A stretch of DNA of 62,049 nt from an uncultured Opitutales bacterium (lineage in GTDB: Bacteria; Verrucomicrobiota; Verrucomicrobiia; Opitutales; JABSRG01), in the NCBI GenBank assembly GCA_964417945.1, contig CAYQKH010000002.1, positions 372-62,420 of the forward strand, read 5' to 3'. The notes under the pieces were generated by a model. It had not been told where the DNA came from. It saw nothing but the letters and a program-made list of their open reading frames with translations, and did no database searches. How positions within the stretch are numbered: the first letter of the stretch is position 1; each line of letters starts with the position of its first letter. Shown one piece after another: positions 1,783-58,019 of this stretch. The translations under genes were made by a program, and so were the position numbers.

Positions 1783-2726
1783 AGCGACGAATTGCAGCCG
1801 TTACCGGAACGGGGAAGGTGGTTCTGGTGAAGGAACCTGTTCCGGAGTTAAAACCGGGTGAAGTCTTAATCCGGGTGAATTGCTCATTAATCAGCCCGGG
1901 CACGGAGGTGAGCGGGATCAAAGCAAAGCGGGAAAATCCGACCGAGGGGGCGGAACCCAAGCCGTTTGGCTACGCGAGTGCGGGCGAGGTTATTAAAGTT
2001 TGCCGGGTAGATGGGATCCAACCGGGGATGCGAGTGGCTGCGATGGGGGCTAATTACGCGATGCACACAGACTACGCTTGTGTGCCGGTGAACTTGGTGG
2101 TGCCGATTCCGGATGGATTGAGTTTTGAACAGGCCACCTATGCTTGCCTGGGTGCGACGGCCCTGCATTCGGTCCGAAGGACCGAACCACAACTCGGTGA
2201 ATACGGCGTGGTTTTGGGGATGGGCATCGTGGGAAACCTGGCAGCCCAGCTTTTGCAACTTAGTGGGGCTCGCATCCTTGGCTGGGAGTCACTGCCTAAT
2301 CGGGTGAAAATAGCCCGGGATTGCGGGATTCGTGATGTTTTGAACCTCGGGAAGGACGACCCGGTGGAATGCACTCGGCGGTTTTCCCACTTCCAGGGGC
2401 TGGATTTTGCGGTCTTCGCCTTTGGCGGAAATGGCGATGACGCCTGGAAGTCCGTGAACGCGTGTATGCAGGTCTCAGCCGATGGAAACCGGATGGGCCG
2501 GGTAACCCTATTGGGTGGAGCCCAGCTGCAGTTGATGGGCGCGGCCGGATGTGGGAACCTGGATATTCGCTCCTCGGCGCGAACGGGTCCTGGGTACCAT
2601 GACGAGGTTTATGAGCATGGGCAAGGCTACCCTGCTGGGTTCGTTCCTTTCACAACCCAACGGAATTTACGGGAAGTGATACGTTTGCTGGAAGAGAGGC
2701 GCTTGGGCGCGCACTCAAGTGCGTAA
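1779..2726 (+). CDS. Zinc-type medium-chain dehydrogenase/reductase (MDR), apparently lacking its C-terminal ~40-50 aa
   Basis: GroES-like N-terminal domain (PGEVLIRVNCSLISPGTE) and Rossmann motif (VLGMGIVGNLAAQLL). It ends abruptly at ...LLEERRLGAHSSA*, where relatives continue with a final beta-alpha unit. Confidence 0.7.
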   Translation: MKRRIAAVTGTGKVVLVKEPVPELKPGEVLIRVNCSLISPGTEVSGIKAKRENPTEGAEPKPFGYASAGEVIKVCRVDGIQPGMRVAAMGANYAMHTDYACVPVNLVVPIPDGLSFEQATYACLGATALHSVRRTEPQLGEYGVVLGMGIVGNLAAQLLQLSGARILGWESLPNRVKIARDCGIRDVLNLGKDDPVECTRRFSHFQGLDFAVFAFGGNGDDAWKSVNACMQVSADGNRMGRVTLLGGAQLQLMGAAGCGNLDIRSSARTGPGYHDEVYEHGQGYPAGFVPFTTQRNLREVIRLLEERRLGAHSSA

Positions 2727-43667: not shown

Positions 43668-45179
43668 TCAGGTGTTGAAAAACGAGAGGATCAGACCGAG
43701 CGAAAGAAGGACGCCGGCAATCAGGATGAACGGTTTCCAGAGGTCGAGGGACTCCTTCCAGTTCTGGTCGGGAAGCGCCTGACGGGAACGGGACGAGCGG
43801 CCCCGGATCCGCCCCTTCTTTAGAAAACCGTCGTAATGGCGCTGCAAGAGGTAGGTCTCCACCTGCCGCATCGTATCGAGAACGACCCCCACCGTGATCA
43901 ACATGCCGGTTCCCCCAAAAAAGAGGGCAACACGGAAGGGGATTTTGTAAAAGTTCAACAGCATGTCCGGAAAGACCGCGATAATCGTAAGGAAGGTCGC
44001 GCCCGCGAAGGTCAAACGGGTCATCGTGTAGTCCAGAAAGCGTGCCGTCGGCTCGCCAGGACGCACCCCGGGGACATACCCCCCATACTTTTTCAGATCA
44101 TCCGCAATCTGGATCGGTTTAAACATGATCGAGACCCAGAAGTAACTGAATATGAAGATGAGGAGACCGTAGGTCGTATAATAACCCCAAGTCCCCCAAG
44201 CGATGAATTCCGCCATCCGCTGGAAAAAAACCACTCCTGTCGCGCCATAGAGAAAGGTCAGGATCTGATTTGGAAACATCAGGATGGCACTCGCGAAAAT
44301 AACCGGCATCACGCCCGAGTAATTGACTTTTAGCGGTAGAAAGGAACTCTGCCCGCCATAGACCTTCCGCCCAACCACTCGCTTCGCGTATTGGACGGGG
44401 ATTTTCCGTTGCCCTTGCGTCACCGCCACCAGCCCCGCGACCACCACGAAGAAAAGCACCCCCATCAGGATCCCCTGCGGCAATCCGAGGGATTGCGTTT
44501 CCGCACCCACCGGAGTGTTGAACATCGTGATCAGCTGCGAGACTGCGCCCGGGAGGTCCGCCAGAATACTGACCGTGATCAGCAGCGAAATTCCGTTACC
44601 AATGCCCCGCTGGGTAATCTGCTCTCCCAACCAAACGAGGATCATCGCCCCGGAGGTCAGGAAGAGGGTCGAGGTGATCATGAACCACGTCGCGTTCACG
44701 ATAATGATCGGACCATAGACATTCGGGTCGAATCCCTGAATTAGCGCGCCAGGGTTCCGGGTCAGGGCCGATAAGAGAAGAATCGATTGCACCAGGCAAA
44801 TCGCAATCGTCAGGTAGCGGGTAAACTGGTTGATCTTCTGGCGACCGATGTCCCCCTCCTGCTGGAGACGGGCAATCGTCGGGAAAACCGCTCCCATCAA
44901 CTGCATGATGATCGACGCAGAAATATAGGGCATAATTCCCAGTGCGAAGATTGCCCCGTTCAGCAGGGCTCCGCCCGTAAACATATTGTAGAGCCCGAGG
45001 AGACCGCCCCCCGCCCCGGTATTCGCGACATCGGCGAAAAAATCACGAATCGGCGAAGGATCAAATCCCGGCAGGGGGATATTGGCTCCCACCCGGGCGA
45101 TGAAGAGCATCGCGATCGTGAAGATGATCCGTTGCCGAAGCTCGGGTATCTTCAGGCTGTTGGTGAACGCGGAAAGCAT
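43668..45179 (-). CDS. secY: Preprotein translocase SecY with a C-terminal tail of about 42 aa containing an extra hydrophobic helix
   Basis: GIMPYISASIIMQLM and the 10-TM core end at ...YDGFLKKGRIRGR. The protein then continues SSRSRQALPDQNWKESLDLWKPFILIAGVLLSLGLILSFFNT. Confidence 0.95.
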   Translation of the reverse strand: MLSAFTNSLKIPELRQRIIFTIAMLFIARVGANIPLPGFDPSPIRDFFADVANTGAGGGLLGLYNMFTGGALLNGAIFALGIMPYISASIIMQLMGAVFPTIARLQQEGDIGRQKINQFTRYLTIAICLVQSILLLSALTRNPGALIQGFDPNVYGPIIIVNATWFMITSTLFLTSGAMILVWLGEQITQRGIGNGISLLITVSILADLPGAVSQLITMFNTPVGAETQSLGLPQGILMGVLFFVVVAGLVAVTQGQRKIPVQYAKRVVGRKVYGGQSSFLPLKVNYSGVMPVIFASAILMFPNQILTFLYGATGVVFFQRMAEFIAWGTWGYYTTYGLLIFIFSYFWVSIMFKPIQIADDLKKYGGYVPGVRPGEPTARFLDYTMTRLTFAGATFLTIIAVFPDMLLNFYKIPFRVALFFGGTGMLITVGVVLDTMRQVETYLLQRHYDGFLKKGRIRGRSSRSRQALPDQNWKESLDLWKPFILIAGVLLSLGLILSFFNT

Positions 45180-45221
45180 GAAAGGTTAAAAGGCGGGCAG
45201 GTTTTGGAGTTCGGGCAGGAA

Positions 45222-45716
45222 TCAGGAGGATTCGGAATCAGGGGAGTCGGCTTCTTCGGCTTTCGCCTCAGCGGTCTCCGCTTCCAGGGTGATCACCGTT
45301 CCGCCCGCTTTTTCAATCTTCCTGACGGCAGAGGAGGAAAACTTATGGGCATGCACAACCAGGGCACGATCCAGCTCCCCATCTCCAAGGATCTTAACCC
45401 GCATACTTCCCTTCCGGATCAGCCCGGCCGCTTCAAGCGCGCTCGGATCGATCGTGTCGGCTTCCACCCGGGCGAGGTCGCCAAGGTTGACCACCGCATA
45501 TTGCGTCCGGAAGTTCTTGTTGTTGAATCCACGTCGGGGTAGTCGGCGGTAGAGAGGGATGTGCCCCGACTCAAAACCGGGGCGCTGGCTGAAGCCGGAG
45601 CGGCTCTTCTGTCCTTTTTGCCCGCGCCCGGAGGTCTTTCCGTGGCCGCTCCCCTCGCCCTTTCCAACCCGCTTTCTCGGGCGGTTCGGGCCTTTCGGTA
45701 ATTGATTTAAACGCAT
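45222..45716 (-). CDS. rplO: 50S ribosomal protein L15
   Basis: MRLNQLPKGPNRPRKRVGKGEGSGHGKTSGRGQKGQ. Confidence 0.96.
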   Translation of the reverse strand: MRLNQLPKGPNRPRKRVGKGEGSGHGKTSGRGQKGQKSRSGFSQRPGFESGHIPLYRRLPRRGFNNKNFRTQYAVVNLGDLARVEADTIDPSALEAAGLIRKGSMRVKILGDGELDRALVVHAHKFSSSAVRKIEKAGGTVITLEAETAEAKAEEADSPDSESS

Positions 45717-45736
45717 CGTATCAGGAGGTTAAAAGT

Positions 45737-46315
45737 TTAGGATTCTTCGCCGGCCTCGTGGGCGTTAGCTTTAATGTCTTCCAGGGTTTCTTCGATGTCC
45801 GCGTCGTTGACCGACCGGCGTAATTCCCGCACAGCATCGTGTGAGCGAAGCTGTTTCAGTCCGTCAAGCGTCGCATTTACCACTGCGAGGTGGTTGTTCG
45901 ATCCGAGGGACTTGGAGAGGACGTTCTTTATCCCCACCGATTCCAGGACGGCGCGCACCCCACCTCCCGCGATGACTCCCGTCCCTTCAGATGCAGGACG
46001 CAGCAGAACCTTCCCGCCGTCGGCCTCGCCAAGAACCTGGTGGGGAATCGTGTCCCCGTTCAGCTGGATCTCGATCAATTGCTTCTGGGCTCTCTCGGTG
46101 CCCTTTCGGATGGCTTCGGGTACTTCTTTGGCCTTTCCGTATCCGACACCAACTTTGCCATTTTGGTCTCCGCTGACGACAAGGGCGGAAAAACTAAAGC
46201 GGCGGCCGCCTTTCACGACCTTGGCGCAGCGATTGATAAAGACGACTTTGTCGACGTAGGTGGGCCCCTCAGATTCGGCTGCAGCCGACGGGTAGTTGCG
46301 ATTCGCATTACTCAT
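45737..46315 (-). CDS. rpsE: 30S ribosomal protein S5
   Basis: [39 protein letters not shown]. The start at Met 46315 avoids overlap with rplR. Confidence 0.96.
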
Positions 46316-46326
46316 ACTAAATAAGA

Positions 46327-46689
46327 TTAAAAGTTTAGGCCGGCCTCCCGGGCCGCGTCGGCAAAGGCCTTGACACATCCATGGTAGCGACGCCCCCCAC
46401 GATCGAAAACTACCCGCTCGGTTCCTGCCGCCTTCGCGCGTTCACCGATCATCTTCCCCAGCTCCGTCGCCCCGGTTACCGTCGCCCGCAGGTTTTGGTC
46501 CCGAAGATCTTTGTCCAGGGAGGATACGTAAAGCAAGGTTTTGCCTGCTTCATCGTCAATGCACTGTGCGTAAATGTGCTTGTTACTAAAATGCACGGAG
46601 AGTCGCGGACGCTCCGTCGTCCCGGAGACTTTTTTGCGAATCCGCCAGCGGCGCTTTTGCAGAAGTTCTTTTTTCTTGTCCAGTTTCAT
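46327..46689 (-). CDS. rplR: 50S ribosomal protein L18
   Basis: [30 protein letters not shown]. Confidence 0.96.
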
Positions 46690-46706
46690 GATCTTGCCTC
46701 CCGAAA

Positions 46707-47243
46707 TTAAGCGGTTTTCTTACCTTCCTTGCGGCGGACAAAGTCACCGACCACCCGGACTCCCTTACCTTTGTAAGGTTCCACCGGATAGTAGGACTTG
46801 ATCGCGGCGGTCACCTGACCGACCAGCTGCTTGTCCGCACCCTCCACCTTTACTTTGGTGTTTTCCGCCACCGTGACCGTGATCCCGTCCGGGATCGGGT
46901 GCTGGATCGGGTGCGAATACCCGAGGGAGAGATCCAAAACCTTCCCCTGCACGGAGGCGCGAAAACCAACACCATGGATTTCCAGGTCCTTGGAATAGCC
47001 TGTCAGGACACCCTCCACCATGTTGTTGATGATTGAGCGCGCCGTTCCCTGCATGGAACGGGCGAGACGGCTCCGATTGGCCGGCTCGACCTTGATCTGG
47101 CCTTCGGTTTCCTCAATCGCCACACAACGGTGGAATGTCTTTTCCAGTTTTCCTTTGGGTCCCTCGACACGGATCGTGTTCCCATTAAGTTCCACCTTTA
47201 CCTTATCTGGTAGGGTGACGGGCAGTTTTCCAATTCTACTCAT
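46707..47243 (-). CDS. rplF: 50S ribosomal protein L6
   Basis: [19 protein letters not shown]...GYSHPI. Confidence 0.97.
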
Positions 47244-47332
47244 GATGTCTCGAATTATGGAACGGGACGGCCGGTCTAACGCGCCTTGGGGCCCCGCCCT
47301 GCATTCTTATGTTGGTTGCGTGTGCGTAAAAA

Positions 47333-47728
47333 TTACCAAATGTTGCAGATGAGTTCTCCACCCACCTTGTTTTTTCGGGCCTCGCGGGCGCGCATCACCC
47401 CTTTGGATGTCGTCAGGATCGCGATCCCGAGGCCTCCAAGAACCCGCGGAATATCCTGGTATCCGTAGTAAACGCGACGCCCGGGCTTGCTCTTTCGTTC
47501 CAAGCCGGTGATCGCGGGGGTCTCGTTGACGTATTTCAGGGAAACCTCCAACTGTTTGAACGAACCTTCCTCGACGGGCCGATAATCGGTGATGTAGCCT
47601 TCGTCTTTAAAAATCTGGCAGAGACTTTCGCGAATCTTTGAATGCGGACAGGTCACCGTCTCCCGGTTAGCGTTGCTGCCGTTACGGATGATCGTGAGGA
47701 AGTCCCCAATTGGGTCATGGATAGCCAT
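47333..47728 (-). CDS. rpsH: 30S ribosomal protein S8
   Basis: DPIGDFLTIIRNG...GGELICNIW. Confidence 0.97.
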   Translation of the reverse strand: MAIHDPIGDFLTIIRNGSNANRETVTCPHSKIRESLCQIFKDEGYITDYRPVEEGSFKQLEVSLKYVNETPAITGLERKSKPGRRVYYGYQDIPRVLGGLGIAILTTSKGVMRAREARKNKVGGELICNIW

Positions 47729-47746
47729 AGGATCAAATGCTAAAGG

Positions 47747-48052
47747 TTACCAGCTCGACTTGGTCACGCCTGGGATGTGGCCGCCGGTTGCCAGTTCTCG
47801 GAAGGTGAGGCGGGAGAGACCAAACTTGCGCAGGTAGGCGCGCGGACGTCCGGTTACATTGCAACGGTTGCGCAAGCGCACCGGGCTGGAGTTGCGGGGG
47901 AGCTTGGTCAGCTTGCGCTGCGCTTCGTAGAAGGCCTCGTCGTCGGTTTCGGGATCGGCGAGGATGGCCTTCAGCTCAGCGCGCGTTTTAGCGAATTTGG
48001 CGACCAGGCGTTCCCGCTTCTTGTTGCGGGCGATGGAGGATTTTTTAGCCAT
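47747..48052 (-). CDS. rpsN: 30S ribosomal protein S14 (long, non-zinc form)
   Basis: [17 protein letters not shown]...[23 protein letters not shown]. Confidence 0.96.
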
Positions 48053-48075
48053 AGTAAATAATTTTTGAGAAAGGA

Positions 48076-48657
48076 TTATGCGGAGACCGCGGCCTCTGTT
48101 TCGCTGGATTGGGCGGAGCCGGATTTGCGGAAGGGCATCCCGAGCAGCTTCAGTAGCTCGGTCCCCTCTTTATCCGTCCCTGCGGTGGTGACAAAGGTGA
48201 TGTCCAGACCGGTGGTCCGCTTCTGTTGATCGACGTTGATCTCGGGAAAAATCGTGATGTCCGAGATCCCCAACGTGTAATTGCCGCGCCCGTCCAACTT
48301 CCCGGGAACGCCACGGAAGTCCCGGATCGCGGGTAAGGCGATATTGATCAGGCGGTAGACAAAGTCCCACATCGCGTTGCCCCGCAGGTCCACCTTCGCC
48401 CCGATCGGCATGCCCGCCCGCAGCTTGAAGTTCGAAACTGAGATGCGCGCCTTTGTGATCACCGCTTTCTGTCCTGCGATGTTGCTCACCTGGTCGGCGA
48501 TCTCCTGGACAACCCCGCGGTCCTGCACGCCAAACCCGGTATTGACCACGACCCGATCCAGCGTTGGAACCTGATGTAGGTTCTTGTAGCCCTGGGTCTT
48601 CATCAAATCGGGGACGATCTTGTCTTTATAAAATTGCTTTAATGCTGGTGTATCCAT
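48076..48657 (-). CDS. rplE: 50S ribosomal protein L5
   Basis: [15 protein letters not shown]...NYTLGI. Confidence 0.96.
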
Positions 48658-48677
48658 GGTTCTTCCTCGTGGGGGAT

Positions 48678-48941
48678 TCAGGCACCCTCACCTCGCTTTG
48701 TTGCCCGAGCGTTATAAGTTTCCGCGAGCATCACGTTGGAGCGGTGCAGGGAGGCTTCCCGTTCCGTAATTGCGCCTTCCGGATTCTCCTGCGACTTCCG
48801 CTCGTGTTTCTTGCGGAGGTTTACCCCCTCCACCAGGACTCGGTTTTTCGACGGAATGAACGAGAGGACCCGCCCGCGCTTGCCCTTGTGGGCTCCCGCA
48901 ATGACGACCACTTCGTCGCCGGATTTCAGTCGTGTTGCCAT
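48678..48941 (-). CDS. rplX: 50S ribosomal protein L24
   Basis: KOW motif LKSGDEVVVIAGAHKGKRGRV. Confidence 0.94.
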   Translation of the reverse strand: MATRLKSGDEVVVIAGAHKGKRGRVLSFIPSKNRVLVEGVNLRKKHERKSQENPEGAITEREASLHRSNVMLAETYNARATKRGEGA

Positions 48942-48943
48942 AA

Positions 48944-49309
48944 TTATAATACCTCCGGTGCCAGGGAAATGATCTTCATAAATTTTGCCCGCAGCTCACG
49001 TGCAACCGGTCCGAAAATGCGAGTCCCTCTCGGATTCGTTCCATCGCTACCAAGGATGACGCAGGCGTTCTCGTCAAAACGGAGATAGCTGCCGTCGGCA
49101 CGATGGATCGGGGCCTTGGTGCGAACCACGACCGCCTTCACAACTTCGCCTTTCTTCACCGTGGCATCCGTCGAACTGTCACGAACGTGAACCACGACAA
49201 TATCGCCGATTCCTGCGGAGCGCTTCTTCTGCCCCAGTCGGCGAATCATCATCGCGGACTTGGCCCCCGTGTTATCGGCCACTTCTAAACGGCTGTTCAT
49301 CTGAATCAT
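48944..49309 (-). CDS. rplN: 50S ribosomal protein L14
   Basis: [17 protein letters not shown]. Confidence 0.97.
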
Positions 49310-49348
49310 CGGATTTCCTCTTGCTGAAAAATGTAGGTGGGCTCCTGC

Positions 49349-49633
49349 TTAGACCCCAAGGGCTGGTGCCTTTTCAAGGATTTCGACCAGCCGCCAGCGT
49401 TTCATCTTGCTCAGGGGGCGGGTCTCCATGATGGACACCTTGTCCCCAACTTTTGCCTCGTTTTTCTCGTCATGGGTGTGCACCACGGTCTTGCGTTTCA
49501 CCTCCTTGTGATAGGCGGGGTGAGCAATCTTGTATTCGTAGGCAACCTTGATGGTTTTCTGGCCGCTGACGCTGACAACGACGCCAATCAGTTCCTTTCG
49601 GCGGTTGCGTTCAACTTTTAATGTATCGGTCAT
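49349..49633 (-). CDS. rpsQ: 30S ribosomal protein S17
   Basis: [40 protein letters not shown]. Met 49633 is preferred to 49663, which overlaps rpmC. Confidence 0.95.
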
Positions 49634-49646
49634 GATGGTTTTAAGT

Positions 49647-49850
49647 TTAAGAGCGGTTTTCAACCGGCTGTTGCTCCCGGAGGAGGGTTTGGATACGGGC
49701 CACTTCCCGGCGTAGCTCCTTTAAGCGGTGGGAGTGCTCCACTTGGCCGGTCTGCTTCCGCAACCGAAGATTTAGTAGCTCGTCCCGGGTGTCCCGCAGG
49801 GCTTTCTGTAGTTCGGGGAGGGATTTTTCTCGGAGTTCTTTCGCTTTCAT
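49647..49850 (-). CDS. rpmC: 50S ribosomal protein L29
   Basis: [18 protein letters not shown]...[11 protein letters not shown]. Confidence 0.95.
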
Positions 49851-49873
49851 GTGCTGTGAAGGGAAGTTGGGCG

Positions 49874-50290
49874 TTAAAGATCCTCGCGGGAAACGAAGCG
49901 GGTACGGATCCCCAATTTGGCGTCGGCTTTGCGCATCGCTTCACGGGCGACGGTTGCCGAACAACCCGAAATTTCAAAGAGAACAAGGCCTGGTTTAATC
50001 ACCGCGCACCAGTACTCGACGTTTCCTTTTCCCTTACCCTGGCGGGTTTCCGCAGGCTTTTTCGTCACTGGTTTTTGCGGAAAGACACGGATCCACACTT
50101 TTCCCCGGCGTTTCAAAGTCCGGGTGATCGCAACCCGCGCCGCTTCGATCTGGCGGGCCGTCATACGTCCACGTGTCAGGGCTTGGATGCCGAAATCCCC
50201 GAAAGCCAGAGTGTTTCCGCCCTTCGCATTCCCGCGGTTCCGGCCCTTGTGGACCTTGCGGTATTTTGTTCTCGATGGTAGTAGAGGCAT
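49874..50290 (-). CDS. rplP: 50S ribosomal protein L16
   Basis: [20 protein letters not shown]. Confidence 0.97.
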
Positions 50291-50301
50291 GGTCCGTCAG
50301 T

Positions 50302-50931
50302 TTAAAATTCCGGTTCATCGAGGCAGATCCAACACTTCACGCCGATCACCCCGTAGGTCGTCCTTGCTTCACAGAAGCCGTAGTCAATATGTTCCCGGAG
50401 CGTATGCAAGGGCACCCGACCGGAACGCTGCTGCTCGGTGCGGGCGATATCCGCACCACCCAGTCGGCCTGATACCTGCAAGCGAATTCCATTCGCACCC
50501 ATCGAAATCGTCGTCTGGACCGCTTTTTTCATCGCCCGGCGGAAGGAAATCCGACGCTCCAGTTGCAGGGCCACCGATTCCGCCACCAGCTGCGCACAGA
50601 GGTCCTGACGCTTGATCTCGTGAATATCCACCAGGACCTCGCGATCAACGATTTTACCCAGCTCCTCTTTGATCTTATCCATCTCGGAGCCCTTCTTTCC
50701 AATAACGATCCCTGGCCGTGCAGTGAAGATCTTGACCCGGATACGGTTGCTCGCGCGCTCGATAAAAATCCGCGGAACGGAGGCGTAGCGCAGCTTCTCC
50801 GTGAGGTAGCTCCGGATTTTTTGATCGTCTGCAATATATTTCGGGAAATCCTGTTTCGTTGCGTACCAACGGGAATCCCAGTTGCGGTTTACTGAAAGGC
50901 GGAAGCCGATTGGATTTACTTTTTGACCCAT
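50302..50931 (-). CDS. rpsC: 30S ribosomal protein S3
   Basis: MGQKVNPIGFRL; KH domain. Confidence 0.97.
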   Translation of the reverse strand: MGQKVNPIGFRLSVNRNWDSRWYATKQDFPKYIADDQKIRSYLTEKLRYASVPRIFIERASNRIRVKIFTARPGIVIGKKGSEMDKIKEELGKIVDREVLVDIHEIKRQDLCAQLVAESVALQLERRISFRRAMKKAVQTTISMGANGIRLQVSGRLGGADIARTEQQRSGRVPLHTLREHIDYGFCEARTTYGVIGVKCWICLDEPEF

Positions 50932-50948
50932 GATGAAAAAAATCGAAG

Positions 50949-51299
50949 TTAGGTTTTGGCGGTCGGCAATTCGTCCGTCAGGACAATACGGATGTGACTG
51001 GTTCGCTTTTTAAAGGGGTGGGCCATCCCGCGGGAGACCGGACGGAATCGACGAAAGGCGGGACCATCTTCAACGATGGCCTTTTCGATCGTCAGCACAT
51101 CCCCGGTGATGTTATTGTTATTTTCCGCATTGGCGATGGCGCTCTGCAGGGTTTTTGCGAGAAGACGGGCGCTCTTGCGCGGAATGAACTTGAGCAACTC
51201 AAGCGCGTCGGCCGCGTTTCGTCCCTGAATCTCCCGGGCAATTTCCCGAACCTTCTTCGGCGACATTCTGGCAAATTTGGTGTAAGCTTGGACTTGCAT
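50949..51299 (-). CDS. rplV: 50S ribosomal protein L22
   Basis: KFARMSPKKVREIAREIQG...HIRIVL. Confidence 0.96.
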   Translation of the reverse strand: MQVQAYTKFARMSPKKVREIAREIQGRNAADALELLKFIPRKSARLLAKTLQSAIANAENNNNITGDVLTIEKAIVEDGPAFRRFRPVSRGMAHPFKKRTSHIRIVLTDELPTAKT

Positions 51300-51310
51300 G
51301 ACGGGGACGT

Positions 51311-51679
51311 TTAAAGGATTGATGCGTTTCGGGATTTGACTCGGACAGGATCCCCCTTGATCAGATCGCGACCCGCGGATATCCGAGTTATAAGGGCGGC
51401 GGTTTCATTGCGACGGGTTGCGATCACAATCAGTTCCGCCACTGGAACTCCATTCGGCTCCACCACGAGGATCATTCCGGGACGAAATCCCGATGCAGAG
51501 CCCCCCCGGCAAAGGACCAGGTCCGGTCCTTCGCTAACTTCGATGGCGCCTACCTTTCCGCTGAACCGCTCCATCGGCGCATCCTCGGCGACTGCGGAGA
51601 GAACCAGCGCCATCAATGCAATCAGAAACGATGTTAACCGGGACCACGGACGGAACGCAACTGGGAAGGAAGAAGGCAT
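51311..51679 (-). CDS. Hypothetical exported protein (122 aa) inserted between rpsS and rplV
   Basis: Fills a 401-nt gap on the same strand, leaving spacers of 21 and 11 nt. Sec-type signal MPSSFPVAFRPWSR-LTSFLIALMALVLSAVA|ED. Beta-rich mature part ending LIKGDPVRVK. The antisense ORF is Arg/Ser-rich junk. Confidence 0.6.
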   Translation of the reverse strand: MPSSFPVAFRPWSRLTSFLIALMALVLSAVAEDAPMERFSGKVGAIEVSEGPDLVLCRGGSASGFRPGMILVVEPNGVPVAELIVIATRRNETAALITRISAGRDLIKGDPVRVKSRNASIL

Positions 51680-51700
51680 GGCGAAATGGCGGATAAAAAG

Positions 51701-51970
51701 TTATTTCTGGGTGTGAGCGCTGTGGCCCTTAAAAGTTCGGGTCGGGGCGAATTCCCCGAGCTTGTGCCCGACCATGTTTTCCGTTACGTAGACCGGGACG
51801 AAGCCTTTACCGTTATGAACACTCAGGTTCAGACCAACGAAGTCGGGCGTGATCGTGGAACGCCGCGACCAAGTCTGAATCGGTCGGCGGTCATCGGTTT
51901 GCTGGGCCTTCTGAATCTTATTCATGAGGCCGGGATCGACGAAGAAACCTTTTTTAATTGAACGTGCCAT
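51701..51970 (-). CDS. rpsS: 30S ribosomal protein S19
   Basis: [12 protein letters not shown]...[16 protein letters not shown]. Confidence 0.97.
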
Positions 51971-51982
51971 GGTCGGAAAACG

Positions 51983-52828
51983 TTAACCTTGTTTAACTTT
52001 GCGTCCGTTGCGGCGCACCAGAATGTCTTTGTTGGAGCGCTTGGACTTTGGCCGGGTCGGGAAGCCCTTGGAGAGCTGACCCCAAGGGGACATTGGGTGG
52101 CCACCACCGGAGGTCCGGCCTTCCCCACCGCCCATCGGGTGGTCTACCGGGTTCATCGCCACACCGCGGACCCGCGGACGACGTCCTTTCCAACGGTTGC
52201 GCCCCGCCTTGCCCATACTTTCCTTCTGGTGGTCGCCGTTTCCTACCATCCCGATCGTCGCCCGACATTTCGAGTTCAGCAGGCGGATTTCACCCGAGGG
52301 CATGCGGACCGTCGCCTTTTTTTTATCGACGCCGACTAACTGGGCGGCGTTGCCCGCCGAGCGGACCAGTTTTGCCCCTTTTCCGGGCTCCATCTCAATG
52401 GCGTGGATACGCGTCGAGGGCGGAATAATCGAAAGCGGCATCGACCAACCTACATTGAATTCCGTGGCCCTTTCCACGTTGCCGATGCTGTCCCCGACAT
52501 TGAGGCCGCGGGGCGCCAGGATGTAACGCTTTTCCCCGTCTTGGTAGCAGATCAGAGCGATCAAAGCGGTGCGGTTTGGATCATACTCAATCGCTTCTAC
52601 TTTCGCCGATACATTCAGCTTTTCGCGATGAAAGTCGATCGCGCGGTAGAGACGCTTGTGTCCACCGCCACGGCGGCGGGAGGTGATCCGGCCATAGGCA
52701 TTGCGGCCTTTTTTGCGGTGGCGGCTGGAGGTCAGTTTCCGTTCCGGGCGTTTCCCTGAGAGCGTTTTCTTATTCCGCTCGAGGTAGCGCTGTCCGGGCG
52801 TGACGGGTTTGCTGGCGACAATAGGCAT
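51983..52828 (-). CDS. rplB: 50S ribosomal protein L2
   Basis: GGGHKRLYRAIDF, NPVDHPMGGGEGRTSGG. Confidence 0.97.
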   Translation of the reverse strand: MPIVASKPVTPGQRYLERNKKTLSGKRPERKLTSSRHRKKGRNAYGRITSRRRGGGHKRLYRAIDFHREKLNVSAKVEAIEYDPNRTALIALICYQDGEKRYILAPRGLNVGDSIGNVERATEFNVGWSMPLSIIPPSTRIHAIEMEPGKGAKLVRSAGNAAQLVGVDKKKATVRMPSGEIRLLNSKCRATIGMVGNGDHQKESMGKAGRNRWKGRRPRVRGVAMNPVDHPMGGGEGRTSGGGHPMSPWGQLSKGFPTRPKSKRSNKDILVRRNGRKVKQG

Positions 52829-52849
52829 GAGATTTTTTTCCTCTCTGGT

Positions 52850-53140
52850 TTATACCATCTCGATCGTTTCGCCCTCCTTGAGGGTGACAATCGCTTTTTT
52901 GTAGCCGCTCTTCCGCCCGGTATTTTGCCGACGGGTGCGGTCCAGGGTGAATTTCGGCTTCACGTTCAAAATGTTGACCCGTGCCACGGACACCCCGAAG
53001 GTTTGCTCCACCGCCTGCTGCACCTGCTTCCGGCCAGCGGATTTCGCCACCTCGAAGGTATACTGGTTGAGATTCGCAGTCAGCTCCGAGGCCTTTTCCG
53101 TTACCCGGTATTCAAGTAGGACTTTATTTGCGTCAATCAT
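52850..53140 (-). CDS. rplW: 50S ribosomal protein L23
   Basis: YRVTEKASELT...YTFEVAKSAGRKQVQQAVEQTFGV..V. Confidence 0.94.
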   Translation of the reverse strand: MIDANKVLLEYRVTEKASELTANLNQYTFEVAKSAGRKQVQQAVEQTFGVSVARVNILNVKPKFTLDRTRRQNTGRKSGYKKAIVTLKEGETIEMV

Positions 53141-53775
53141 CCTTCTGATTCTCCATTCAACCGAGTCAGGACCGTATCGAGACCTTTTTCCGTTAGGATG
53201 ATCTGGTCGTAAAAAACCAGATCATAACTGTTTAAGGTGCTTGAGCGGGTGACCGCAACCCGTGGGAGGTTCCGCGTGGCAAGGGCGGCATTGTCACCGA
53301 AATGGTCGTCCACCAATAGGACCTTCCCGGTCGGCGCGATCTGTCCGACAATTGAGTTCATCATTCGCGTCTTCGGTTCGGAGAGGTTGAAATTCTCGAT
53401 CAGGGAGAGATCCCCTTCCGAAGCACGTTCGAAAAGCGCGCGGTTGAAGGCCAGATCCCGCATCTTGCGATTTAATTTCTGGGAATAGTCGCGGGGCTTC
53501 GGCCCGAAAGCGATCCCTCCACCGCGATGCTGCGTACTCCTCCGAGTTCCCTGGCGGGCCATCCCCGTTCCTTTCTGCCGAAAAGGTTTTTTCCCGGTCC
53601 CGGATACTTCGGCGCGGGTTTTCGTGCTTGCTGTTCCCTGGCGCTGGTTTGCGCGGTAGGCCAGGATGACCTGACGCAAGGCGTCTACTCCCTTCTCCCC
53701 ATCAAAAGCGGGAAAATGGGAGACTTCCTTCTCGGAACTCTGGGTTCCGTCCGCGGTGTAAAGTTTCAATTTCAT
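53137..53775 (-). CDS. rplD: 50S ribosomal protein L4
   Basis: GTGKKPFRQKGTGMARQGTRRSTQHRGGGIAFGPKPRDY. The stop overlaps the rplW start by 4 nt. Confidence 0.96.
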   Translation of the reverse strand: MKLKLYTADGTQSSEKEVSHFPAFDGEKGVDALRQVILAYRANQRQGTASTKTRAEVSGTGKKPFRQKGTGMARQGTRRSTQHRGGGIAFGPKPRDYSQKLNRKMRDLAFNRALFERASEGDLSLIENFNLSEPKTRMMNSIVGQIAPTGKVLLVDDHFGDNAALATRNLPRVAVTRSSTLNSYDLVFYDQIILTEKGLDTVLTRLNGESEG

Positions 53776-53776
53776 C

Positions 53777-54424
53777 TTAGGCGGCTCCTCTGCGTTTCTT
53801 GATGGCGGGCCGGACGGATACTATCGATCCGTTGTAGCCTGGAAAACTCCCCTTTACCAGCAACAGGTTCTTCTCCGGAATGACCTTTACCACTTTGAGA
53901 TTCTGGGTCGTGCGGTTTCCCCCACCCATGCGCCCGGGCATCTTTTTCCCTTTCAGAATTTCACCCGGCCATTGGCACATCCCATAGGATCCACCGCGCC
54001 GGTGAAACATCGATCCGTGGGACGCCGGCCCACCACTAAATCCCCAGCGTTTGACCACGCCTTGGAATCCCCGACCTTTCGCCGTCGCGATCACGTCCAC
54101 CTTCTCGATTTCGCTGAAGGCGTCTATCGTCAGTTTCTCTCCGACTTCATAGGTCTTTGAAGAATCATCAGTGCGGAATTCCTTCAGGCAGCGGACCGGG
54201 TCTACACCAGCTTTCTTCAGATGACCGAGCACAGGTTGGCTCAAACGGCTTTCCTTCTGAGGGCCGAAACCGATCTGGACCGCTTGATAGCCGTCTTTTT
54301 CCTCGGTCTTAATCTGGGTCACCGAGCAGGGACCCACTTCGATGACCGTCACGGGTATTAGACGATTGTTTTCGTCAAATACTTGGGTCATCCCTAGTTT
54401 TTTTCCTGTTAGTGTAAAACTCAT
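53777..54424 (-). CDS. rplC: 50S ribosomal protein L3
   Basis: LTGKKLGMTQVFDE...KGRGFQGVVKRW. Confidence 0.97.
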   Translation of the reverse strand: MSFTLTGKKLGMTQVFDENNRLIPVTVIEVGPCSVTQIKTEEKDGYQAVQIGFGPQKESRLSQPVLGHLKKAGVDPVRCLKEFRTDDSSKTYEVGEKLTIDAFSEIEKVDVIATAKGRGFQGVVKRWGFSGGPASHGSMFHRRGGSYGMCQWPGEILKGKKMPGRMGGGNRTTQNLKVVKVIPEKNLLLVKGSFPGYNGSIVSVRPAIKKRRGAA

Positions 54425-54621
54425 GGTGCTAAGCGGCAGGTGGGATCGGCTCCCGTTTAAAGACCTGCTTTAGTCTTCGGGTTGGTTACTTTGAGGGATT
54501 CGGTTAAAATAATGAGGTTGCGGAAAGAAATCGATCGGGTCCTGACTCAGCGCTGGGTTTCGGAGATTTTAAAAACTAGTTCGCCGAGGATTGACCGGGG
54601 AAGATTGGTTTCGAGTTAGAC

Positions 54622-54930
54622 TTAAACGTTGATCGTGATGTCGACGCCTGCGGGGAGATTAAGCTTTTTGAGCTCGTCCACCGTTGCTGCGGTCGGCTCG
54701 AGGATGTCGATCAGACGCTTGTGCGTCCGGACTTCAAATTGATCCATGGACTTTTTGTCGACATGCGGCGATCGGTTCACCGTGAAGATTTCGATTCGCG
54801 TCGGCAGGGGCACCGGGCCAGCAACCCGTGCGCCGGAGCGCTTCGCGGTTTCCACGATATCCGATGCGGACTGATCGATGATTCGGTAATCAAAGCCTTT
54901 TAGGCGAATACGAATGCGTTGAGTAGCCAT
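54622..54930 (-). CDS. rpsJ: 30S ribosomal protein S10
   Basis: [41 protein letters not shown]. Confidence 0.97.
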
Positions 54931-54966
54931 GGATGGAAAAGAACAGAAATGAGTGGGTAAAAACGA

Positions 54967-57114
54967 TCAGGTGCGGGCAGGTTCGCGGGAGGAAGTCTCG
55001 ACGATTTTGCTCAGGATGGAGGACGGAACCTGCTCGAAGTGCGACGGGGTCATCGAATAAGAGGCCCGGCCCTTCGAGAGCGAACGCACGTCCGTGGCAT
55101 ATCCGAACATCTGTTCAAGCGGCACGTGGGCCGTGATGATGGTCATGTTCGTCTTCGACTCCATGCCTTGGATCTGGCCACGGCGGCGGTTGAGGTCGCC
55201 CATAATGTCCCCTTGATACTCGTCCGGAGTCGTCACTTCCACTTCCATAACCGGTTCCAGCAGGATTGGTTGGGCTTTGTTCATCGCATCCTTAAAGGCG
55301 AAGATTCCCGCCATCTTGAACGCCATTTCGGAAGAGTCTACGTCGTGAAAACTGCCATCGAAGAGTTCTACCCGGAAGTCGACTACCGGATACCCGGCCA
55401 CCACCCCGTTGTTCGCTGCCTCAAGGATGCCGTCGAAAGTCGGCTTGATGAATTCTTTCGGAATCGTCCCGCCGACAATCTTATTGTCGAGATCGACTCC
55501 CTTGCTCTTCTCGTTCGGGGAAAGCCGGATTTCGCAATGCCCATACTGTCCGCGACCGCCCGATTGACGGACAAATTTCCCGGTTCCTTCGGAGTTGCCA
55601 AGGATGGTTTCCCGGTAGGCGATTTGCGGCTTTCCAGCTTCCGCCTCAACTTTAAATTCGCGGAAGAGCCGATCCCGGATGATTTCCAGGTGGAGTTCGC
55701 CCATCCCTGCGATCAATGTCTGCCCGGTTTCCTCGTCGGAGCGGACCACGAAGGTGGGATCCTCTTCTGCAAGACGCTGGAGGGCGAGGGACATTTTTTC
55801 TTGGTCGGCTTTGGTATTGGGCTCGATTGACATCGAGATAACCGGGTCCGGGAAGGAGGGCGGCTCCAATTGAATGTCCAGTTCCTTATCGCAAATAGTA
55901 TCCCCTGTCACCACATCCTTGACGCCGATCAGCGCGCAGATATCCCCGGAATAGGCGACTTCGATATCCTCTCGGGTATCCGCCTTCATAATCATCAATC
56001 GGCTGATTCGCTCGGTCTTGCGGGTACGGGGGTTGTAAAGGGCCGAACCTTTTTTCAAGGTCCCTTGATAGACCCGGTAGAAGACCAGTTTTCCAACATA
56101 GGGGTCGGTCATTAATTTGAAGGCCAAACCGGCCACCGGAGCTTTATCGTCCGGACGAATCAACACCTCTTCGCCATCATCATTTTCTCCCCGCATTGCT
56201 GGCAGCTCAAGGGGGTTCGGGAGGTAATCGACCACCGCATCCATCAACATCTGGACGCCCTTGTTCTTAAAGGCAGAACCGGGGATTACTCCAACAAAAT
56301 TGAGACTCGTTGTCGCCGCCCGGATCGCCGTCCGCAGCTCATCCACCGAAATCTCTTCGCCTTCGAGAAATTTCATTGCGAGGTCGTCGTCAAAATCGGC
56401 TACAGCCTCAATCAACTTTTCCCGTGCAGCAGACGCTTCTTCCACATACTCCGCGGGAATGTCTGTGGTGTCGAACTTGATTCCCGCCTCATCGCTTTCG
56501 TCGTAGAGAAAGGCCACCATCCGCACGAGGTCGATCATTCCCCGGAAATTTTCCTCCGCTCCGATCGGAAGATAAAGCGGGTGGGCATTGCCCCCGAGCT
56601 TCTCACGGATTGTTTTACAAGCATACTCAAAATCGGATCCGGTCCTATCCATCTTGTTGATGAACGCGATGCGGGGTACATGATACTTGTCCATTTGCCG
56701 CCACACCGTTTCGGATTGAGGTTGCACTCCTTCCACTGACGTAAAGACCGCTACTGCGCCGTCGAGGACCCGTAGCGAGCGCTCTACTTCGGCCGTAAAG
56801 TCTACGTGGCCGGGGGTGTCGATGATGTTAATCTGGTGCTCTATCCCCACAAAGGGTCCGTCGGATGTCGTCCAGCGGCAGGAAATCGCGGCAGAGGTAA
56901 TCGTAATCCCCCGTTCCCGCTCCTGTTCCATCCAGTCGGTTACCGCGCTGCCTTCGTGCACCTCGCCCATTTTGTGGACGACGCCGGAATAGAAAAGAAC
57001 GCGTTCGGTCGTGGTCGTCTTCCCAGCGTCAATATGGGCGGCAATCCCGATGTTCCGCGTATATTCAAGCGGGAATTTCCGTCCGGAAGAGTTTACTTCT
57101 GAGAGGTTAGCCAT
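54967..57114 (-). CDS. fusA: Elongation factor G
   Basis: [35 protein letters not shown]; 715 aa. Confidence 0.97.
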
Positions 57115-57152
57115 GGTCGGTCAGTTTGCAGTCAGCTTTAAATCAAAGGGGA

Positions 57153-57626
57153 TCACCAGCGGAGGTGAGCGAAGGCCCGGTTTGCCTGAGCCATCTTGTG
57201 CGTTTCTTCTTTCTTTTTCACGACCGCACCCGTGTTGTTGTAGGCATCGAGAATTTCCTGTGCCAAAGCTTCCCGCATCGGCATTCCACCACGGCTGCGG
57301 GCGGTATTTACCATCCAGCGAAGCGCGAGGCTTTGCTGCCTTTCGAAAGAGATTTCGACTGGGACTTGGTAGGTTGCCCCGCCGACCCGTCGGCTCTTCA
57401 CTTCGAGTTTGGGCCGAGCATTCTCCAGCGCTCCAAGGAGAATTTCCGTGGGGTCTCCCTTCTCCAGTTTTTCGGATACCCGTTCGATCGCACCGTAAAC
57501 GATTCGTTGCGCGAGGGATTTTTTTCCGCGCTCCATTACGGTATTGACCAGGGAGGCCACTAGGAGATTGTTGTAGCGGGGATCAGGAATGGCTTCCCGT
57601 TTGTCGGCTCTGTGTCTGCGGGACAT
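57153..57626 (-). CDS. rpsG: 30S ribosomal protein S7
   Basis: [18 protein letters not shown]...AFAHLRW. Confidence 0.97.
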
Positions 57627-57638
57627 GATAGAAACTCC

Positions 57639-58019
57639 TTACTTTGCGGCTTTCGGCCGTTTTACCCCGTATTTGGAGCGGCTGCGGCGACGTTTCTCCA
57701 CCCCAACTGCGTCGAGAGTTCCACGGACGACATGGTAACGCACTCCCGGAAGGTCTTTTACACGGCCTCCACGAACCAATACAATACTGTGTTCCTGGAG
57801 ATTGTGCCCTTCGTCTGGAATGTAGGCGATTACCTCGTAGCCCGAAGTCAGGCGCACCTTGGCCACCTTGCGAATAGCGGAGTTCGGTTTCTTCGGAGTC
57901 CGCGTCATCACTTGAACACAGACGCCCCGACGAAAGGGACAACGCCGAAGGGCGGGGGATTTCGACTTCCCTTTGACAAGCTTCCGGGGCGATCGGACGA
58001 GTTGATTAATGGTGGGCAT
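57639..58019 (-). CDS. rpsL: 30S ribosomal protein S12
   Basis: [13 protein letters not shown]...PKKPNSA(I)RK...GVRYH. Confidence 0.97.

Follow-up and report, generated by a model that had tools for sequence, protein, structure and literature searches.

The gene order of the S10 operon is among the most stable in bacteria, and the S10-spc-alpha cluster is also known for its non-ribosomal passengers, namely secY, adk, map, infA and rpoA, which have long been kept in ribosomal protein transcription units. These passengers are near-universal genes of known function that belong to the spc or alpha operons, and the product of one of them, secY, is targeted to the membrane. A detailed survey of the cluster, covering Gammaproteobacteria and Bacilli, emphasises how stable it is over the long term. 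The gene that we describe here, which we call gene X, resembles these passengers as a non-ribosomal gene long kept among ribosomal protein genes, and its predicted export is a trait shared with the product of secY, but it is known from Opitutia and lies inside the S10 operon proper.

Several described proteins contain domains comparable to the one predicted for gene X. FlgT is periplasmic and has a signal peptide, and its C-domain (PF16538; 3w1e; 8z5n) has the same beta-roll or barrel fold and provided the top Foldseek matches. However, FlgT has three domains (about 350 aa), belongs to the flagellar H-ring and is encoded in a flagellar gene neighbourhood, whereas gene X, in the S10 operon, would encode a single barrel of about 80 aa. 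In the FlgT C-domain, an extruding finger subdomain mediates ring contacts, and the FlgT-like domains of TsaP oligomerise in the periplasm as a heptameric belt that surrounds the PilQ secretin (10.1101/2020.05.29.123786). The CI and CII domains of TsaP (6ve2) are FlgT-C-like barrels, the first two strands of which share D-V-V-x-L-x-x-G-x-x-x-G-L-x-x-G with X, in a match that is not significant (E = 0.2-0.6). TsaP combines LysM with two tandem barrels, whereas X has one barrel, no LysM Pfam match and no T4P gene context. The N-terminal barrel of the F1/V1-ATPase alpha and beta subunits and of FliI (ATP-synt_ab_N; HAS-barrel) is a six-stranded closed barrel like that of X, and in the F1/V1-ATPases these barrels pack side by side in a ring, the crown. 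They are, however, cytoplasmic N-terminal domains of P-loop ATPases, while X is free-standing, carries a predicted signal peptide and has no ATPase domain; the window protein has no Pfam match to either model, and one member of its family matches HAS-barrel with E = 0.012. Finally, SecM, VemP and MifM are, like X, encoded by small ORFs that carry an export signal and lie directly upstream of a coupled gene, but they are unfolded arrest peptides acting via an mRNA hairpin, whereas X has a folded domain under selection and an unstructured junction.

In the window, that is, the whole stretch of 62,049 nucleotides analysed here, rpsS and rplV are separated by a gap of 401 nt on the minus strand (51300-51700), which is occupied by gene X, a same-strand ORF that begins with ATG and ends with TAA (Table 1). 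Pfam identifies the flanking genes as those for S10, L3, L4, L23, L2 and S19 on one side and L22, S3, L16 and S17 on the other, in the canonical order S10-L3-L4-L23-L2-S19-[X]-L22-S3-L16-(L29)-S17. Judging by ORF sizes, genes of the str, spc and alpha operons follow downstream on the same strand, including secY (43668-45179), which lies in the same co-oriented cluster about 6 kb downstream of gene X. A preliminary description of this DNA, made from its letters, had placed the gap, the ORF and spacers of 21 and 11 nt at coordinates that are exact, had quoted the peptide correctly (MPSSFPVAFRPWSR, then LTSFLIALMALVLSAVA, then EDAP...) and had regarded the S10 gene order as intact apart from the insertion, as the Pfam assignments confirm. 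It had also set aside an antisense ORF (51336-51716, plus strand, 126 aa) as the wrong strand. That ORF is present, but its frame is not conserved among the 76 aligned genomes.

Table 1. Features in and around the rpsS-rplV gap (positions in the window)
Feature	Position	Strand	Evidence and remarks
rpsS (uS19), upstream neighbour	51701..51970	-	Pfam Ribosomal_S19, E = 1.2e-35
rpsS-X spacer	51680..51700	-	21 nt; no SD motif; unstructured, fold z = +1.64; about 19-30 nt in relatives
gene X	51311..51679	-	122 codons plus TAA; ORF, same-slot orthologues, coding signature, dN/dS; member of an Opitutia family that has no annotation and is fixed in the rpsS-rplV slot
Predicted Sec (type I) signal peptide, residues 1-31	51587..51679	-	R10 and R14 in n-region; h-region LTSFLIALMALVLSAVA; AVA, then EDAP
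Internal ATG (Met36)	51572..51574	-	Start of database copy P0001; GAGGA motif upstream; most orthologues lack an equivalent Met
Predicted six-stranded beta-barrel domain, residues 40-116	51332..51562	-	AlphaFold2 and Foldseek; FlgT-C / F1-ATPase N-terminal barrel fold
X-rplV spacer	51300..51310	-	11 nt; 5 nt in most relatives; fold z = +2.17
rplV (uL22), downstream neighbour	50949..51299	-	Pfam Ribosomal_L22, E = 2e-33

Gene X is a real coding gene under purifying selection, as the preliminary description had proposed. Its sense frame is open and encodes a homologous product in all 76 aligned genes, while any other frame is open in at most 6 of them, and nucleotide entropy is 1.07, 0.80 and 1.60 at the first, second and third codon position, the third being the most variable. 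By comparison with locus L001, dN/dS is 0.165 for the whole gene, 0.13 for the mature part and 0.47 for the N-terminal 35 residues, and the flanking ribosomal protein genes give values of 0.01-0.04. Over the 740 pairs with unsaturated dS, the median dN/dS is 0.16 for the domain and 0.38 for the N-region. We estimate the chance of a random open frame of 122 codons at the local GC content at about 1%.

The gene belongs to a family that occupies a single site. We probed one genome per GTDB species with uL22 and obtained 80 loci, each of them labelled Opitutales, Puniceicoccaceae, Coraliomargaritaceae or similar. In 75 of these, the rpsS-rplV gap measures 350-490 nt and contains a homologue of 110-151 aa that is in frame. 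Thus, the survey of rpsS-rplV spacing suggested in the preliminary description finds that relatives with comparable gaps keep the reading frame. The remaining five loci (L025, L069, L073, L074 and L076) have no insert and a gap of only 21-61 nt; these five relatives manage without gene X at this site. The named carriers belong to the Puniceicoccales (Coraliomargarita, Lentimonas and Thalassobacterium) and the Opitutales (Candidatus Merdousia), NCBI orders of the class Opitutia, to which, within the Verrucomicrobiota, our survey of carriers was confined.

Protein searches led to the same slot. The closest database relative, P0002 (66% identity, 121 aa), is encoded in the rpsS-X-rplV slot of a 96-kb metagenome contig. 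A word-indexed search with the single sequence returned the protein itself and one homologue, and the same search with an alignment returned 15; the family became visible only when HMMER was run exhaustively over 1.84 billion cluster representatives, which yielded 135 of them at E <= 1e-3, nearly all of 100-150 aa. Five distant members were located by exact sequence (P0002, P0008, which is a long form of 194 aa, P0026, P0045 and P0093), and all five are encoded directly downstream of rpsS, with rplV as the next gene in four; the 1.1-kb contig of P0045 stops right after the gene. JGI metagenome contigs were searched from the protein itself with a narrow alignment, which gives a sample free of ribosomal-gene bias, and all 62 loci found were again in this slot, 61 with S19 upstream and L22 downstream and one cut by the contig end. 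No paralogue of gene X was found within the 62-kb window.

Pairwise distances between X proteins follow those between the concatenated S19 and L22 (Mantel r = 0.89, a value reached in 0 of 999 permutations), which fits vertical inheritance of the gene in place. The rate at which gene X evolves is about 3.2 times that of S19 and L22, so the gene is not under the kind of constraint that acts on its ribosomal protein neighbours. In a crude NJ tree of S19 and L22 (about 200 aa), the genomes without the insert are scattered, which suggests an old gain followed by several losses, in a tree too weak to choose between histories. The arrangement probably arose early in the class Opitutia, was passed down vertically and was lost in a few lineages.

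The database copy of the protein (P0001, in NCBI and Logan) has 87 aa and begins at Met36, so it lacks the signal peptide. A GAGGA motif is found 7 nt upstream of Met36, whereas the ATG at 51679 has no SD, and this motif probably drove the choice of start in the database. About half of the genes of the operon have no SD, however, so its presence is not diagnostic of a start here. All 75 orthologues have an ATG 1-76 nt past the rpsS stop and, after it, a hydrophobic segment that is conserved, and the same N-terminus is found in nearly all of the approximately 133 family representatives that are full length. In a heuristic scan, the best 11-mer Kyte-Doolittle score was 1.94-3.18 in all 76 proteins versus at most 1.60 in 19 cytoplasmic ribosomal proteins, the n-region contained K or R in 73 of the 76, and a site with small residues at -3 and -1 was present in every one, for instance AVA|EDAP here and VRA|EVPAFV in most relatives. 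Thus, the basic n-region, hydrophobic core and AxA-type site that had been noticed in this one sequence are conserved features of the family. Residues 13-29 are modelled as a helix when AlphaFold2 is given the full-length protein. Because the upstream ATG and the signal features are conserved and Met36 is absent from most orthologues, the evidence favours the long form starting at 51679, with a Sec-type signal peptide, as the conserved product. At least in this genome, then, annotation has chosen the wrong start codon and thereby dropped the signal peptide.

The most likely fate of this N-terminus, as far as the sequences indicate, would be export by Sec and cleavage by signal peptidase I after Ala31. 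We also considered a lipoprotein processed by SPase II and rejected it, given that residues 1-56 contain no Cys and no lipobox; the Cys of some relatives sits outside a lipobox context. It is conceivable, although we regard it as unlikely, that the segment is not cleaved and acts as a signal anchor, so that X would be a bitopic inner-membrane protein with a periplasmic barrel, perhaps an accessory of Sec/YidC. The uncharged stretch has a median length of 18.5 residues and reaches 39, lengths that are borderline for either a signal peptide or a TM helix, and the K/R-rich n-region would suit an N-in/C-out orientation. Moreover, secY, the core gene of that machinery, lies in the same co-oriented cluster, and MreC, a bitopic protein with periplasmic barrels, is weakly matched by 2 of the 133 members. 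Nevertheless, the small residues at -3 and -1 are followed in all 76 proteins by an acidic or Pro-containing c-region, as is typical of cleaved signal peptides, and the hydrophobic region evolves fast, unlike a TM segment that makes specific contacts: the dN/dS of the signal-peptide region (0.38-0.47) is higher than that of the domain, while still indicating constraint.

If the signal peptide is removed, the predicted mature protein has 91 aa, a mass of 9.6 kDa and a pI of 8.3. The preliminary description had called this part rich in beta-formers, and AlphaFold2 indeed models it as a barrel of six strands with two short helical turns (pLDDT 86.7, pTM 0.75 for the mature part alone), while the full-length model, built from a 15-sequence alignment, gives the beta domain a pLDDT of 71-91. 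In a Foldseek search of the PDB, the mature model matched 8z5n_0 (E = 1.1e-3, TMq 0.62) and FlgT (3w1e; E = 2.6e-3, TMq 0.64); we assume this 352-residue chain of the Vibrio LPHT flagellar ring (8z5n_0) to be FlgT, since its length fits and it resembles 3w1e. The N-terminal barrel of the F1/V1-ATPase alpha and beta subunits gave TMq values of 0.55-0.64 and an rmsd of 3.0-3.4 A over 78-82 columns, and the full-length model produced a similar set of matches, FliI (5b0o) appearing with that model only. These E-values are modest (about 1e-3), and the rmsd between the X model and FlgT is 6.6-6.8 A over about 91 columns, which suggests that their elaborations outside the core differ. Within these bounds, the domain models confidently as a member of the FlgT-C / F1-V1-ATPase N-terminal barrel class.

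No Pfam or NCBIfam family covers this domain. Searching the ORF against Pfam and NCBIfam gave only noise (DUF6725, E = 0.19, and PRK10040, E = 0.029, both over the signal-peptide region), and a search of PDB sequences gave no significant match (TsaP, E = 0.2-0.6; S1, E = 2.1). Among the 133 members, Pfam echoes were limited to FlgT_C in six (E = 0.03-0.1), the MreC barrel in two, HAS-barrel in one and KOW in one (E = 0.019). Similarity to FlgT_C is far below the Pfam threshold throughout the family, and the window protein has no match to it; a distant multi-barrel relative, P0088, scores 16 bits, the gathering score being 27 bits. The sources that name family members use "hypothetical protein". 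Thus, the family, which had not been recognised from the letters either, is a new one by its sequences, with no Pfam or NCBIfam model covering it and no model matched above threshold, and the structure prediction that had been called for returned a confident beta-barrel where profile and PDB sequence searches gave nothing significant.

The conserved residues of the family (D53, G59, G60, G64, R66, G68, M69, E82, A94, L96, I97, G109, D110 and R113) are mostly Gly and core hydrophobics, together with D53, R66, E82, D110 and R113. They include no catalytic-type constellation, and we rejected the possibility of an enzyme. A flagellar or T4P component was also rejected: the neighbours at the insert loci are rpsS and rplV, with no flagellar or T4P gene context. 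Considering that the fold is one used to build rings and that no catalytic residues are conserved, we infer by analogy that X may have a scaffold role, as a non-enzymatic protein-binding or self-associating module.

Our preferred reading, to which we give a probability of about 0.62, combines these elements. Gene X would make a 122-aa precursor that the Sec pathway exports and that signal peptidase I cuts after Ala31, releasing into the periplasm a single-domain, six-stranded beta-barrel of about 9.6 kDa. This barrel would have the fold that FlgT and TsaP use for periplasmic rings encircling envelope machines and F1/V1-ATPase for its crown, and X would act as a binding or self-associating module of the envelope, without enzymatic activity. 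As a cistron transcribed within the S10 operon, it would be one step in a coupling chain, rpsS -> X -> rplV, the junctions of which are short, unstructured and SD-less, and its output would thus be linked to growth rate and to the synthesis of ribosomes. The precedents would be secY, adk, map and infA, which travel in the spc and alpha operons.

The operon part of this reading draws on the junctions. Since gene X is on the same strand as its neighbours, is separated from them by short spacers and shows no match to an internal promoter or terminator, it would be co-transcribed with the rest of the S10 operon. A scan of 10 kb found no sigma-70-like promoter, where 4.6 would be expected from shuffles, and no terminator-like site in or beside gene X, nor in either spacer. 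Both junctions are less structured than most of their shuffled counterparts, namely 194 of 200 for the rpsS-X junction (51650-51740; z = +1.64) and 198 of 200 for the X-rplV junction (51270-51370; z = +2.17), as is characteristic of regions that are open for translation initiation. In most relatives, exactly 5 nt separate the end of X from the rplV ATG, so that translational coupling is likely, and the final codons of X are A-rich and, beside the rplV ATG, conserved at the nucleotide level, the junction reading ...AAAACAYTTCAAAACAGC TGA ATCTC ATG. From these features, we infer that X may be a link in a chain of translationally coupled cistrons, its 3' end doubling as the initiation region of rplV. 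The codon-adaptation score of gene X (0.626) is the lowest of the 64 genes scored in the window and speaks mildly against very strong expression-level selection, but the index cannot demonstrate high expression here, since it barely separates ribosomal proteins from other genes (medians of 0.739 and 0.726).

The junctions also invite the idea that gene X is a secretion-monitoring leader like SecM, VemP or MifM, in which the state of its translation or export would control rplV and the genes downstream, possibly as far as secY, with the protein itself being secondary. This would agree with a small ORF that carries a predicted export signal, is directly upstream of the next gene and coupled to it, and has C-terminal codons and a junction conserved at the nucleotide level. 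The ribosomal exit tunnel, moreover, is lined by uL22, the product of that next gene. We find such a function very unlikely nonetheless, as an arrest peptide needs neither a confidently folded 80-residue barrel nor purifying selection over all of it. Furthermore, the conserved C-terminal residues form the last strand of the barrel, no known arrest motif was recognised, and the X-rplV junction, being less stable than nearly all of its shuffles, offers no hairpin to sequester the ribosome binding site.

Harder still to credit is a cytoplasmic, ribosome-associated protein, that is, a lineage-specific ribosomal protein or assembly factor consisting of an 87-aa barrel translated from Met36. The start of P0001 and the GAGGA motif would be in line with it, small beta-barrels are common in ribosomal proteins, with weak KOW or S1-like echoes in single members of the family, and it would explain why the gene sits inside the S10 operon. 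Yet most orthologues have no equivalent of Met36 and all keep the upstream ATG and the hydrophobic segment, while the SD-like motif upstream of Met36 carries little weight in an operon where about half of the genes have none. No ribosomal protein family gave a significant Pfam or NCBIfam match to gene X, there is no ribosomal protein among the top 50 Foldseek matches, and a gene that evolves about three times faster than S19 and L22 does not behave like one of them. As for the notion that gene X is not a gene, but a structured regulatory RNA or a chance ORF of GC-rich spacer DNA, the long ORFs on both strands, as GC-rich DNA gives, and the absence of protein-family matches might suggest it, but its probability is negligible, as it is excluded by variation that tracks codon positions, a single frame open in all 76 genes and a dN/dS of 0.16, besides the confident predicted fold, the absence of any Rfam match in the region and the lack of surplus RNA structure at both junctions.

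A non-coding element having been dismissed and a periplasmic barrel being preferred, it is worth separating what is familiar in this locus from what is new. The barrel fold is already known, and so are non-ribosomal passengers in ribosomal protein operons (secY, adk, map and infA). The novelty lies in the family itself, in a location at the heart of the S10 operon, in fixation across the class at this one site and in a product that is apparently exported. In the literature that we searched, there was nothing on an rpsS-rplV insertion or on any peculiarity of the S10 operon in Verrucomicrobia, in agreement with the initial impression that no insertion had been described at this position. A previously unannotated family thereby gains a predicted fold and a clean definition based on synteny, gene X offers a simple marker by which to assign genomes and MAGs to the Opitutia lineage, and the annotated start codon of X can be corrected in at least this genome.

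A more speculative proposal, which we consider doubtful, is that X links the status of the envelope or of secretion to ribosome production, either through an export-dependent translation that gates rplV and about 20 downstream cistrons, including secY, or as an envelope component made in fixed proportion to ribosomes. Either form of such a link would explain that no copy of X was found outside the rpsS-rplV slot in the class Opitutia. The marine Coraliomargaritaceae and Puniceicoccaceae and the gut Merdousia and CAG:312 are among the members of this lineage, which has kept X in the middle of the S10 operon, with no ectopic copy detected. The family is a natural test case for asking why selection has an apparently secreted protein made in step with ribosomal proteins, both in amount and in time, and if its position reflects regulation and not convenience, envelope biogenesis would be connected to ribosome synthesis in a new way.

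In many Coraliomargaritaceae-type genomes, the 3′ end of X (in the window, the 122-codon ORF between rpsS and rplV) runs into the following gene through a stretch that is kept at the nucleotide level, AAAACAYTTCAAAACAGC TGA ATCTC ATG (end of X, 5-nt spacer and rplV start). Synonymous sites are also conserved there (last 18 nt plus the spacer), and the segment probably doubles as the translation-initiation region of rplV. When we surveyed the str-S10-spc cluster (minus strand, 43668-58019 of the window), we could recognise no Shine-Dalgarno (SD) motif at 30 nt or less from the start codon in roughly half of its genes, namely fusA, rpsJ, rpsS, X, rplV, rpsC, rplP, rpmC, rpsN, rpsH, rplF, rpsE, rplO and secY, which suggests that SD-independent or coupled initiation is widespread in this organism. 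In five related Opitutia genomes (L025, L069, L073, L074 and L076), the rpsS-rplV spacer is of normal size, at 21 to 61 nt, and within these 5-kb loci the junction (about 2440-2500) holds no trace of X.

In the database copy of the window's X (P0001, 87 aa; NCBI and Logan), Met36 serves as the start; it is an internal codon that follows an SD-like GAGGA, and the conserved signal peptide is therefore missing from P0001. The start codon has probably been mis-called, although a minor isoform may also be produced from the internal start. Among all genes scored in the 62-kb window, X (51311-51679) ranks last in codon adaptation, with 0.626 on an r-protein-based index that hardly separates gene classes in this genome, and its GC3 (0.585) is also the lowest.

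The spacer between rpsJ and rplC, which is unusually long, contains no sense-strand ORF of at least 20 aa and has no match in Rfam, and its RNA is not more stable than expected (z = -0.68). This region may act as a leader or regulatory element that has not been described before, or it may just be a spacer that is tolerated.

Positions of the features discussed; L-numbers denote loci from other genomes or contigs, with coordinates within each locus
Feature	Sequence	Position	Strand	Remark
Met36 of X, internal ATG	window	51572-51574	(-)	start in P0001
SD-like GAGGA upstream of Met36	window	about 51582-51586		
Mature N-terminus motif of X orthologues	L036 (example)	residues 30-45		
Conserved X 3′ end and spacer	L036 (example)	2475-2500		L027-L038 and many others
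P0088 gene	L083	6001-7635		
P0088 gene	L084	2658-4292		
rpsJ-rplC spacer	window	54425-54621	(-)	197 nt, unusually long
rpsJ-rplC spacer	L001	2069-2296		228 nt
rpsJ-rplC spacer	L085	1042-1235		about 195 nt

Directly after the predicted cleavage site, most members of the X family carry the conserved motif (E/D)VPAFV-x-E-S-(L/I)-Y-S-P-N-A-A, reduced to APMERFSG in the window's X and its closest relative, and this segment may function as a peptide for docking or supply an additional strand. A distant relative from another lineage, P0088 (544 aa; E = 2.9e-5), has a signal peptide and, by eye, apparently several tandem copies of the X-type barrel motif, with two stretches of the protein matched by the profile. 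Its gene adjoins that of a family-9 glycosyltransferase (LPS heptosyltransferase type), and MurJ is encoded some 2.4 kb further downstream, on the other strand. These features of P0088 hint that X-type barrels work in the cell envelope.
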